DNA of 63,349 nucleotides, counting the filler, from Octopus bimaculoides (Eukaryota): NCBI RefSeq assembly GCF_001194135.2. It is 4 parts of 4 records of this genome, joined end to end, with 100 filler letters (N's around TTAATTAATTAA, not from the genome) between each part and the next. Parts side by side here need not be neighbours in the genome. Positions count along the whole stretch, not along the records: positions 1 to 23,942 come from NC_068986.1; positions 24,043 to 48,003 come from NC_068982.1; positions 48,104 to 59,610 come from NC_068994.1; positions 59,711 to 63,349 come from NC_068988.1. One strand, written 5' to 3'. The notes beneath the pieces are model-generated. The model saw nothing but the letters and a program-made list of their open reading frames with translations. It made no database searches and was not told where the DNA came from. The position numbers were made by a program, and so were the translations under genes. Position 1 is the first letter of the stretch, and every line of letters begins with the position of its first letter. Of this stretch, positions 15,522 through 59,762 are shown piece by piece.

Positions 15522-15580
15522 ATTCCACCGATGAAGGCAAAGCATTATTTCTGCAAAGCCAGAAATCCAGGATCTGGAAT
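15522..15580 (+). ncRNA. Minimal type I hammerhead ribozyme fold (U4C core variant)
   Basis: attcca-CCGATGA-aggc..gcca-GAAA-tccagga-TC-tggaat: 6-bp stem I, GC stem II, near-palindromic stem III atccaggat, AUC cleavage triplet. Confidence 0.65.
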
Positions 15581-16989
15581 TATCTTGTTATTTTTACTGG
15601 TTTATTTTGTCTTCGTCTTCGCTCCTTGTGCTATGTGGACATTTATTGTGGTTTAGAGTAAGATTTGACTGCTCTTTTTCAGCGTGGCGGTATCTCTTAA
15701 ATACCCTGTATTATATATATATATATATATATATATATATACATACATACATACATATCAAATATATTCGTTTAGGACTACTACTACCTATTACCTTTTA
15801 CGAAGCTTTCACAAGAGTGAAAAAGGGAGACAGACACAGAGAGAAAAGGATAATGTCCCTGCATTTGAAAGCTATGGAAAGCAACATTTCATTAAATTTT
15901 TCCACGATTTAATTGTTTTTCAAGCTTTACTCTAATTTGAAAAAGTCGTAAAGATTGAAACCGGTACGCAAATATTCTTCATGATAAAATTATTTTAGCA
16001 TTTTCTACGTTGTCTTATTTTCCTTATGCATATCAACTCGTGTGATCCTTTTCAACCTTCTACACACACACACACGCACAATCACACAAACACACAAACA
16101 CACAAACACAAACACACGTCGTTAGTTAGTTATATATGTCCCTTGAAAACACGCTGTACTGGATATGAATTAAGTGCTCTAGTATGAGATATGTCTAAAA
16201 CCTTAAAAAAGATATTTAGAAATTCAATAACAGCGATTATATATTAGAGAGTAAAATGCTGGAAAAGTTATACCTTAAGAATCACAGTAGAGGTAAGTCC
16301 ATAATATAACAAAAAATTACATTAATAAATAAATAGTTAAAGTACATCTATGATCATTAAAATATTCATTTTTAATGTCTTGAAAGTTCTTACGATCGTT
16401 TCATGAATATACTATCTCTGAAAATGAAATCTAAGGTTGATAAGCATAATTGAAAAGTATATCCATTCATCAGAGAAAGGATGGATTTCAGGGGAAGAAA
16501 TCGAATGAGGGAAATGTTACTTAACATCGAATGACAATGGTATTGCTTAAAAAATTATTGCCATAAATCTGTGTTGGTATAAATTTGAGCTAAAACTTTT
16601 GAAAAAGTAAAATAAATTCATGGTAAAAATCCGTGATAAGAGTCCTTAATTGTTGTGTAGAGATAGAATTCCCGTAATCCATTTCTTCTTCTGTGTATAA
16701 TCCACGAATGTAATAAAATAAAAGCGATTAATTGATGCTTTTATATTCATTGAGATAAAACGGTAAGATACCATTATTAATTATATTTTATGCAAATGTG
16801 CATATGGTTGTGCATTGACTTAGAATTTATCCTCTTGAAACTTGAATCTATACTCTTCTAATATATAACTAACTGGTTTTCACTAATACTTCAAATATAA
16901 TACATTAATATAATCTGTACGCACGTATAATATGTGTGTGTGTGTGTGGGTGTGTGCGCGCGTGCAAATTTTAAATCAATATTTATTAG

Positions 16990-17090
16990 AAGCAGCAGAG
17001 TGGCACAGTGGCCAAGAGTTTCAAGCGTTGGTACTTATCAAATGTTTGGATAAGTACGAAACTCTCAGCCCAAGCGGCACCTTGTTGCTT
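16990..17090 (+). other. Isolated nested hairpin of about 100 nt
   Basis: gagtttc/gaaactc, gtacttatc/gataagtac and aagcagcag/ttgttgctt pairings. Confidence 0.5.
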
Positions 17091-17235
17091 TTGCTAAAAT
17101 ATATATATATACTCGTGTTTTGAGTTCTATTTTTCGTGTTTGCATCACCATATCTGTTTATAGATCTGGATATACACATAGCAGTATTGGTCACGGTTGG
17201 AGCATATTTGATCATAAATCTGCACGAACAGAACT

Positions 17236-17667
17236 AATCTGGTACTAAGTAGTCCTTTCTACTATAGGCACAAGGCCTGATATTTTGGGGGTGATGGGTA
17301 AGTCGATTATATCGACCCAGTACTCAACTGGTATTTAATTTCTCGATCCCGAAAGGATGAATGTCAAAGTGGAATCTGGTACTAAACAATCATTTCTACT
17401 ATAGACACAAGGCTTGAAATTATAGGGGAGGGGGCTCAGTCGATTTCATCAACCCCAGTACGCAACTGGTATTTAATTTATCGACCCCGAAAGAATGAAT
17501 GGTAAAGTGGAATCTGGTGCTAAATAATCATTTCTACTATAGGCACAAGGCCTGAAATTTTAGGGGAGGGGTCCCAAATTTAATCGACTTGATCAACCCA
17601 GTACACAACTAGTACTTAGTTTATCGACCCAGAAAAGATGAAAAACGAAGTCGAATCTAGTACTAAG
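17236..17667 (-). repeat. Three tandem units of about 138-143 bp, each a 5'-truncated family B SINE
   Basis: The junction aatctggtactaa recurs, with variants, at 17236, 17373, 17511 and 17654; each unit carries atcgaccccgaaaggatgaa. Confidence 0.85.
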
Positions 17668-57853: not shown

Positions 57854-59610
57854 GTTTAAGCTAATTCACTTGCATTACTTCGTTTGGAAAGGCATGACCG
57901 CCACTTGACCACATTTTTCTTACAGATACGGAATTTGTTACTAATGGGAAATAAATCTCCGTACATACTTGCATGATGGCACATATGTATGTATGTATGT
58001 ATGTATGTGTGTGTGTGTGTGTGTGTGTATGTATGTATGTATATATGTTTGTATGTATGTATGTGTGTGTGTATGTATTCTTTTATTTTAACTTGTTTCA
58101 GTCATTTGATTGCGGCCATGTTGGAGCTTTGTTCTCTTTCTCTTTTAAATTTAGGATATAAAGAGAACATACACACATACTTGCCTGCATGTATGTAGGC
58201 ATGTCTGTATTCATGTATGCGTGTATGTATATATGTATGTATATGCGTGTGTGTGTATGTGTGTGTATATATGCATGTATGTGTATATATATATATATAT
58301 ATATATATATATNNNNNNNNNNNNNNNNNNNNNNNNNNNNNNNNNNNNNNNNNNNNNNNNNNNNNNNNNNNNNNNNNNNNNNNNNNNNNNNNNNNNNNNN
58401 NNNNNNNNNNNNNNNNNNNNNNNNNNNNNNNNNNNNNNNNNNNNNNNNNNNNNNNNNNNNNNNNNNNNNNNNNNNNNNNNNNNNNNNNNNNNNNNNNNNN
58501 NNNNNNNNNNNNNNNNNNNNNNNNNNNNNNNNNNNNNNNNNNNNNNNNNNNNNNNNNNNNNNNNNNNNNNNNNNNNNNNNNNNNNNNNNNNNNNNNNNNN
58601 NNNNNNNNNNNNNNNNNNNNNNNNNNNNNNNNNNNNNNNNNNNNNNNNNNNNNNNNNNNNNNNNNNNNNNNNNNNNNNNNNNNNNNNNNNNNNNNNNNNN
58701 NNNNNNNNNNNNNNNNNNNNNNNNNNNNNNNNNNNNNNNNNNNNNNNNNNNNNNNNNNNNNNNNNNNNNNNNNNNNNNNNNNNNNNNNNNNNNNNNNNNN
58801 NNNNNNNNNNNNNNNNNNNNNNNNNNNNNNNNNNNNNNNNNNNNNNNNNNNNNNNNNNNNNNNNNNNNNNNNNNNNNNNNNNNNNNNNNNNNNNNNNNNN
58901 NATATATATATATATATATATATATATATATATACATATATATATGCGTATACGCATGTATGTATGTACGCGCAAAATACCGGATGTAGTGTTCCGGCGT
59001 ACGATAAGCCGGTGGGTGTGTCATTTCCCAAGCTTCCATTGACGCAAATGTCTGGGAGAAGGTAATTACGAAATAAGACCCGCCTCATTGCGAAACCGGC
59101 GATCTTGCGCCTGCTCGTGTCTGGTCTACTTGGCTTTTTAGGTGAGAGTTTTAGTGGTGCTGTGCAAGGTGTCATTTTAGCATGGGTATTGCCGACAGCC
59201 ATTGTTTTTAACACCCAGAATAAAATGGTCTATGTATGTATGTATGTATGTATGTATGTATGTGTGTATGTGTGTATGTATGTATGTATGTATGTATGCA
59301 TGTATGTATGTATGTATGTATGTATGCATGTGTGTGTGTGTATGTAGTGAGTTTTTATGCTACGTTTACCAATGTCTATGAATGTATGCATGTATATACG
59401 TATGCATACATGCAAGTATGCATTATGTACATGTTTGTAAATATTCATTAAATATATTTACTACAAGATAAAAAGACTTAATCACAATATGTTTAGACAT
59501 ACATATATAATATATAATGTAATATAATATAATATAATATAATATAATAATATGATATAATATAATGATATATATATATATATATATATATATATATATA
59601 TATATATATA

Positions 59611-59710
59611 NNNNNNNNNNNNNNNNNNNNNNNNNNNNNNNNNNNNNNNNNNNNTTAATTAATTAANNNNNNNNNNNNNNNNNNNNNNNNNNNNNNNNNN
59701 NNNNNNNNNN
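59611..59710. other. Artificial 100-bp join (44 N + TTAATTAATTAA + 44 N)
   Basis: Spacer at 59655-59666. Confidence 0.95.
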
Positions 59711-59725
59711 TTCCTTTCTGTGTTC

Positions 59726-59762
59726 CTTTATGTTAAAGAGCGTAGGCTCGAAACGTTAAAGA
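59726..59762 (+). pseudogene. Degenerate hammerhead, same family as 37575-37611
   Basis: cttt-ATGTTAA-agagc-gtag-gctc-GAAA-cg-TTA-aaga: stems are retained but the core is mutated. Confidence 0.55.

Follow-up and report, generated by a model that had tools for sequence, protein, structure and literature searches.

Minimal type I hammerhead motifs of several dispersed repeat families in Octopus bimaculoides, most likely relics of Penelope-like elements

Five type I hammerhead folds

The window analysed here is a 63,349-nt stretch of the Octopus bimaculoides genome (assembly GCF_001194135.2), joined from parts of four records, that carries five minimal type I hammerhead ribozyme motifs. It is AT-rich, with numerous microsatellites, and 7,415 of its 63,349 bases are N, in 25 gaps. 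We scanned the whole window with a type I hammerhead descriptor, its looseness set equal to that of a first-pass annotation made from the sequence alone, and recovered exactly five sites, at 15522, 23196, 37575, 52888 and 53215. Together with folding predictions, the descriptor places family A at 15522..15580 (plus strand), family B at 23196..23238 (plus), family C at 37575..37611 (minus), family D at 52888..52933 (minus) and family E at 53203..53270 (plus, core fold 53215–53259); contigs from public runs additionally support family D, and a 30-bit match to Rfam Hammerhead_1 family E. Cuts are predicted after 15574, 23234, 37580, 52896 and 53255, respectively. Coordinates, strands, stem III sequences and cleavage positions all agree with those of the first-pass annotation.

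The cores read CCGAUGA at 15522, CUGAUGA at 23196, CUGUUGA at 37575, CCGACGA at 52888 and CUGAUGA at 53215. The first-pass annotation gave all copies CYGNNGA and GAAA cores and an NUH triplet. The GAAA box, the NUH triplet and a closing stem I of 4–8 bp are present in 5/5 sites; the cores differ, with the exact CUGANGA box in 2/5 (23196 and 53215), U4C in 2/5 (15522 and 52888) and A6U in 1/5 (37575), and a sixth, eroded copy at 59726 lacks the core. Family A has a 6-bp stem I, an AUC triplet and a 9-nt near-palindromic stem III. Its stem II has an extra A on either side (a bulge plus an extra A). In family B, stem I is 4 bp and stem III a 10-nt self-pairing sequence, and the decayed stem II has no predicted fold alone (0.0 kcal/mol). 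Family C combines a bulged A, a 4-bp stem II with a G-C base and an ACGU stem III with an upstream U-rich tract, and is the only site that fully matches the bulged G10.1-C11.1 form of stem II. Family D has an 8-bp stem I, a 3-bp stem II on an A-U base, a 9-nt near-palindromic stem III and a GUA triplet. Family E, with an extended stem I, an 8-nt palindromic stem III and a stem II that has a G-C base, one mismatch and no bulge, is the only site at which a sound stem II accompanies a canonical core.

By folding prediction, stem III as a monomer hairpin scores 0.0 kcal/mol in all five sites, and its self-duplex scores −7.0 to −7.9 kcal/mol in 4/5 and −1.7 kcal/mol in family C. A stem III that cannot close as a hairpin yet pairs with itself points to an arrangement needing two copies; these minimal type I hammerheads are thus predicted to require a dimer, self-cutting itself being a prediction. 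The unconstrained minimum-energy fold and the hammerhead fold lie 0.8–4.5 kcal/mol apart in 5/5. An Rfam scan of the window returned nothing at the gathering score. In a 564-nt scan, 53215–53259 aligned over the whole Hammerhead_1 model (RF00163) and scored 30 bits (E = 2e-05), short of the 34 required; focused scans over the other four sites gave no hammerhead match. MicroRNA matches in the window were rejected as microsatellite artefacts. (TA)n lies 31–132 nt from four of the six sites, a raw count in a window full of microsatellites.

The first-pass annotation had proposed a comparison with dinucleotide-shuffled sequence, and the motif frequency stands well above it: with the loose descriptor, palindrome rule included, 200 local dinucleotide shuffles gave a mean of 0.06 sites and a maximum of 1, against five in the window. 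Stricter settings retained 2–3 sites, versus 0.01–0.03 in shuffles. As a check against the palindrome being fitted afterwards, we removed that rule. The same five sites were returned with no extra, stem III being palindromic in 5/5, and 600 shuffles yielded 0.33–0.41 sites, palindromic ones at 0.06, and never more than 3; the reversed window and the complemented window each gave 0 under this descriptor. The excess over shuffles and the unselected palindromes in 5/5 establish that the five folds are real as a set. The window was picked for its motifs, and the five-site count gives no true genome density. Pair counting across the five sites was rejected as structural support because it is circular.

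A chance origin of the motifs, as random matches in repetitive, AT-rich sequence, therefore has next to no probability. The descriptor without the palindrome rule does give chance matches at the rate above, a partial look-alike occurs at 48628 inside coding sequence of a long interspersed nuclear element (LINE), and 23196 lacks a stable stem II; however, five sites were reached in 0/200 and 0/600 shuffles, the palindromes occur in 5/5 without selection, and the majority sequence of family E restores its stem II (see below). Chance is refuted for the whole set, with 23196 the least secure single site. At the CCGAUGA matches at 22181 and 48628 the remainder of the fold is absent.

Families D and E and the U4C core

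We matched four public runs to 52862–53425 at 80% likeness, a region covering families D and E. Summed DNA-contig depth for family D peaked at 1.66 million, compared with 34–64 for single contigs. The high-depth zone spans 52862–52937 (about 75 nt), with depth falling about twentyfold past 52937. Summed depth is itself no copy number, and we take it to mean no more than that copies number between thousands and tens of thousands. From the 5′ arm of stem I outwards, family D flanks differ from copy to copy. The loose ends upstream are heterogeneous (agreement of 0.48–0.68 where many records were pooled), and the downstream tails are more uniform. The window copy has a short 3′ tail (52862..52887, minus) that ends near (TA)n, 31 nt from the motif; other copies have a longer tail. 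Opposite-strand joints were found at 52933/52936 in seven DNA contigs, and at 52916/52929 in one DNA contig and in 48 and 15 RNA reads. An inverted stretch of the family's own tail makes up another piece of this evidence, in one loose end.

Family E lies in a moderately repeated sequence (53014..53425, plus) with a summed contig depth of roughly 1,000–7,000, again versus 34–64 for single contigs. At 53228, the majority letter (53 contigs, 88% of depth) gives stem II six Watson–Crick pairs, a test not built into the descriptor; the window copy has thus decayed from a better fold. At N17 (53255), U occurs in 85%. Upstream, 53023–53057 contains complementary five-base arms around a short hairpin and a four-base palindrome, and the majority letter at 53043 produces GAAA; by eye, this may be a core-less relic of another family. 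A GIY-YIG-like idea upstream of 53203 was dropped, as the majority letters at 53066–53073 do not fit.

Among the 40 of 130 differences listed for this region, core positions are affected only at N7 (52921; family D majority U, 70%) and N17 (53255), both variable places. Position 4 of family D shows no change among these 40, and a family D loose-end consensus from another locus also reads CCGA, the same loose end having lost other core bases. On these grounds, among the differences listed, U4C appears to be the state of family D. The 56 published minimal representatives all have U4 and A6 (PMC4209133), whereas here families A and D carry U4C and the family C copy A6U; a CUGA-based search could not have found U4C cores. 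Our literature search on U4C returned only one report, Perreault et al. 2011, which cites the change in a viroid hammerhead with activity lowered in vitro yet sufficient in vivo (PMC3088659). There, the same core change is a rare variant, whereas here it is apparently the majority state in an animal repeat of very high copy number. Such cores may be included in Lunse et al. 2016, a study of hammerhead variants associated with Penelope that lay outside the search's coverage.

A bolder reading, less probable than not, is an octopus hammerhead lineage that combines CCGAUGA (U4C) with a 9-nt odd-length palindromic stem III in at least two families unrelated in sequence, and that CUGA descriptors and Rfam miss; in one of the families, copies may number in the tens of thousands. 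If U4C hammerheads cleave as dimers, the animal consensus would be wider than published, and this genome would be among the densest untallied ribozyme sets. Published activity in vitro is low and leaves open whether Penelope-type hammerheads must be catalytic (PMC4209133); the U4C family, apparently fixed in a very abundant repeat and missed by CUGA-requiring descriptors, offers an easy test of that question.

Probable relation to Penelope-like elements

Among the five, the family C copy at 37575 is closest to the published minimal consensus (PMC4209133). A second piece of this family, at 33162..33243 (minus), is 98.8% identical over 83 nt to 37604–37686; it starts at the same (TA)n boundary and runs into an assembly gap three bases into the core. 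It lies 4.4 kb from 37575 and could be its same-strand partner if the gap contains the rest. We rejected 33162/37604 as the two pseudo-long terminal repeats (pseudo-LTRs) of one element: short interspersed nuclear elements (SINEs) and microsatellites lie between them, and the gaps there total about 1.5 kb. The eroded copy at 59726..59762 (plus) retains stem II, GAAA and ACGU, has lost the CUGANGA box, and is 83% identical to 37575 over 60 nt. The statement of the first-pass annotation that the stems share no sequence is thus true among the five; it fails for 59726 and 37575, which are one family. Pyrimidine tracts precede stem I at 37612–37690 (minus) and in the family D upstream loose ends. 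In sequence, they recall the intron end abutting the hammerhead in Drosophila virilis Penelope (PMC4209133).

We also found a decayed inverted pair that the first-pass annotation had missed, at 45055–45128 (minus) and 45298–45366 (plus), within 45050..45370, 79.7% identical over 74 nt. The minus-strand member shows CCGAUGA and GAAA along with a short stem II flanked on both sides by one additional A; it lacks stem I and the palindrome, and its arrangement resembles that of 15522. The surrounding 45020–45545 contains nested inverted repeats, with a second pair at 45226–45310/45454–45542.

We conclude that the five motifs are type I minimal hammerheads of five dispersed families, most likely pseudo-LTR remnants, the short 3′ ends left by Penelope-like retroelements or by their non-coding derivatives, and that most copies here are likely inactive. 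The descriptor, the folds and the published survey of Cervera and de la Pena 2014 (PMC4209133) uphold the view of the first-pass annotation that several dispersed families carry minimal hammerheads of a kind known from Penelope-like elements. In that survey, a genome can hold thousands of such motifs, which belong to several families and are mostly solo, and opposite-strand pairs lie 100–700 bp apart. Monomers showed no activity there, dimers a weak one; among its 56 examples are molluscs (Lottia, Crassostrea), unbulged and long-palindrome forms, U17 and one AGAAA. Our sites share its type I topology, short palindromic stem III, common U at N17, many unrelated families and mostly solo copies; 52888/53215 matches the spacing of its opposite-strand pairs, and family C matches its bulged base and U-rich upstream tract. 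The dense set of unrelated ribozymes described in the first-pass annotation is the published pattern for truncated Penelope-like elements. Our sites differ from the survey in the 9-nt odd-length near-palindromes of families A and D and in that no linked open reading frame (ORF) for reverse transcriptase or GIY-YIG was detected here, and no cephalopod is among its 56 representatives.

By inference from PMC4209133, a tandem transcript of the parent element would carry two pseudo-LTR copies that pair via the palindromic stem III, and the paired hammerheads would cut the tandem RNA to unit length. Reverse transcription would begin at the 3′ end and usually stop early, leaving hammerhead-keeping pieces of 70–400 bp, often accompanied by an inverted piece and often within microsatellites. 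A solo copy without its partner would not cut efficiently, would decay, and would be transcribed only as a passenger in host RNAs. Published Penelope-like insertions show 5′ truncation, adjacent inverted copies, 30–40 bp tails and (TA)n targets (PMC8557442), and 30 recently active Penelope families are reported from O. vulgaris (PMC13282606). Between families D and E, where this was examined, family D has short copies that keep hammerhead and tail, with a zone of about 75 nt, mixed upstream ends and conserved downstream tails. Inverted truncated copies beside a 5′ end occur in the family D joints (52916–52936) and in the pair at 45055–45366. The sequenced part of the window holds no complete same-family partner on the same strand. 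The sites at 52888 and 53215, whose pairing as a heterodimer we rejected, lie on opposite strands facing apart with different palindromes; the window copies are thus probably inactive relics.

Several observations weigh against a Penelope-like origin. Three of the five cores deviate from the published consensus. One DNA contig contains a tandem family D unit, with 52934 joined back to 52889 and 12 letters between. Copy-number and junction data cover families D and E. Of 364 stop-free frames of at least 55 residues, we scanned the 254 of higher complexity against Pfam. None matched reverse transcriptase or GIY-YIG, a weak negative since the scan also missed decayed LINEs; it does agree with the first-pass annotation that most copies lack a nearby reverse transcriptase. 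What did match was a pair of Mos1-type helix-turn-helix (HTH) domains, a stretch of C2H2 fingers and a repeat artefact. Nor did reverse transcriptase or GIY-YIG appear in 21 read-through frames taken around two LINE relics and three of the sites, again a weak result as the LINE relics were missed too. A homolog search for the frame upstream of 23196 returned nothing, and 23050–23120, by eye like a GIY-YIG C-terminus, found no support from Pfam or that search. The link to Penelope-like elements is one of architecture only, and membership is our inference from it.

The two family C pieces with an identical upstream boundary also count against such an origin, since a fixed-length non-autonomous element or a local duplication fits this boundary better than random truncation does. 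Some families could instead be SINE-like elements of fixed length that bear a hammerhead and have a promoter of their own, with a partner retroelement doing the copying, as for schistosome alpha elements. We regard this as improbable. Both family C pieces start at an identical base next to (TA)n, a minus-strand half hammerhead at 780–1048 abuts what by eye resembles a tRNA-type head, and SINEs make up 11.6% of O. vulgaris, with most recently active families unclassified (PMC13282606). However, ARAGORN found no tRNA gene in the window, Rfam gave no tRNA match at 780–1048, and the family D upstream ends are heterogeneous.

On our preferred explanation, relics of Penelope-like elements, the sites belong to an already described kind, with one modest variant (U4C), and their main value lies in annotation. 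A literature search returned no dedicated study of hammerheads in octopus or cephalopod repeats, only an Rfam count for the giant squid genome, with 235 annotated Hammerhead_1 matches (PMC6962438). Exact-pattern scans found no relatives of families C, D and E in viral contigs or of families C and D in metagenome contigs.

RNA evidence and neighbouring repeats

We sampled about 6% of each of two raw RNA runs, for which strandedness and RNA selection are not on record. Over 52862–53425, 519 and 317 reads matched, nearly all on the family D motif, equally by strand (211 versus 212; 133 versus 142), with 92–96% continuing into unlike sequence. This fits passenger transcription of a dispersed repeat. 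The first-pass annotation had expected RNA ends at the predicted cut sites; at this sampling we saw no end pile-up over the region, a weak negative. Back-joints of circular RNA were likewise absent from the two raw runs and from one probable RNA contig set, a negative also weakened by the unrecorded library selection. That contig set does contain a 382-nt contig identical to 52972–53353, spanning the predicted family E cut site.

The motifs could also be dispersed monomers of non-LTR retrozymes, of which tandem 150–450 bp units elsewhere are transcribed, cut, circularised and reinserted. We consider this unlikely, though a shade less so than the SINE-like scheme. Animal retrozymes (PMC7229834; bioRxiv 10.64898/2026.07.22.740005) resemble our sites: they are non-coding and poor in GC, carry a type I hammerhead, need a dimer for cleavage in some cases, and come from Penelope pseudo-LTRs, the probable source of our sites too; the frames flanking our hammerheads likewise gave no Pfam match. 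The tandem family D contig and the family D reads in RNA would suit such a system, solo monomers are known (bioRxiv 10.64898/2026.07.22.740005), and arrays may escape notice, as short-read assemblies collapse them and gaps occupy 7,415 of 63,349 bases. Because retrozymes derive from Penelope pseudo-LTRs, this reading partly overlaps with Penelope-like relics. Yet retrozymes are defined by head-to-tail arrays with a hammerhead per unit and by circular RNA, and neither was seen in the window or the RNA runs: none of the 131 tandem-repeat rows of the window contains a hammerhead, no back-joint occurred in three RNA or RNA-like runs, and no end pile-up was seen at the sampling above. Moreover, the family D upstream loose ends are mixed and no direct continuation of the tail, RNA reads fall equally on both strands and mostly run into unlike sequence, and the folds here are minimal where coral retrozyme motifs are canonical (PMC7229834). 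With no tandem array and no complete same-strand partner in the window either, the retrozyme or circular RNA system suggested in the first-pass annotation is unsupported here.

Domestication by the host, with the copies cutting intronic or non-coding host RNAs, is very improbable. The 382-nt contig suggests that the family E locus may be transcribed, but it spans the predicted cut site; reads 99% alike to 52862–53425 number only 0/519 and 1/317; and the changes in the copies are of a decay type (the stem II mismatch at 53228, the unfoldable stem II at 23196 and the lost core at 59726).

Other repeats lie around the hammerheads. At about 851–880 (minus), the half motif mentioned above is the 3′ half of another minimal hammerhead. 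It abuts a unit on the plus strand that has (AAT)n and, by eye, a tRNA-like head. The unit stops at a gap, where four of its bases are complementary to the half motif's stem I arm; 780–1048 is possibly an inverted pair of a further family. Adjoining the family E repeat, a LINE 3′ end is well preserved and carries an (AAT)n tail (53440–53992, minus; 307 homologs); we take this LINE to belong to the restriction-like endonuclease clade. The best named match to its fragment 53618–53899 is an Octopus bimaculoides protein, 89% identical. A decayed LINE reverse transcriptase region, L1/Tx1-like by eye and with no Pfam match, occupies 48300–49760 (minus). Two decayed mariner-type transposons with Mos1 HTH matches lie at 10426–11263 and 40407–41035. 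The stop-free stretch at 41705–41938 (plus) encodes two C2H2 zinc fingers and ends near a TA-rich microsatellite; it is a LINE 3′ end or a host exon. At 17236–17670, a tandem array comprises three 138-bp units from part of a SINE-like repeat, with no hammerhead inside. Lastly, decayed DNA transposase remnants, hAT-like by eye, extend over 55600–57850 and include an internal 134-bp duplication (55855–55988/56135–56268).

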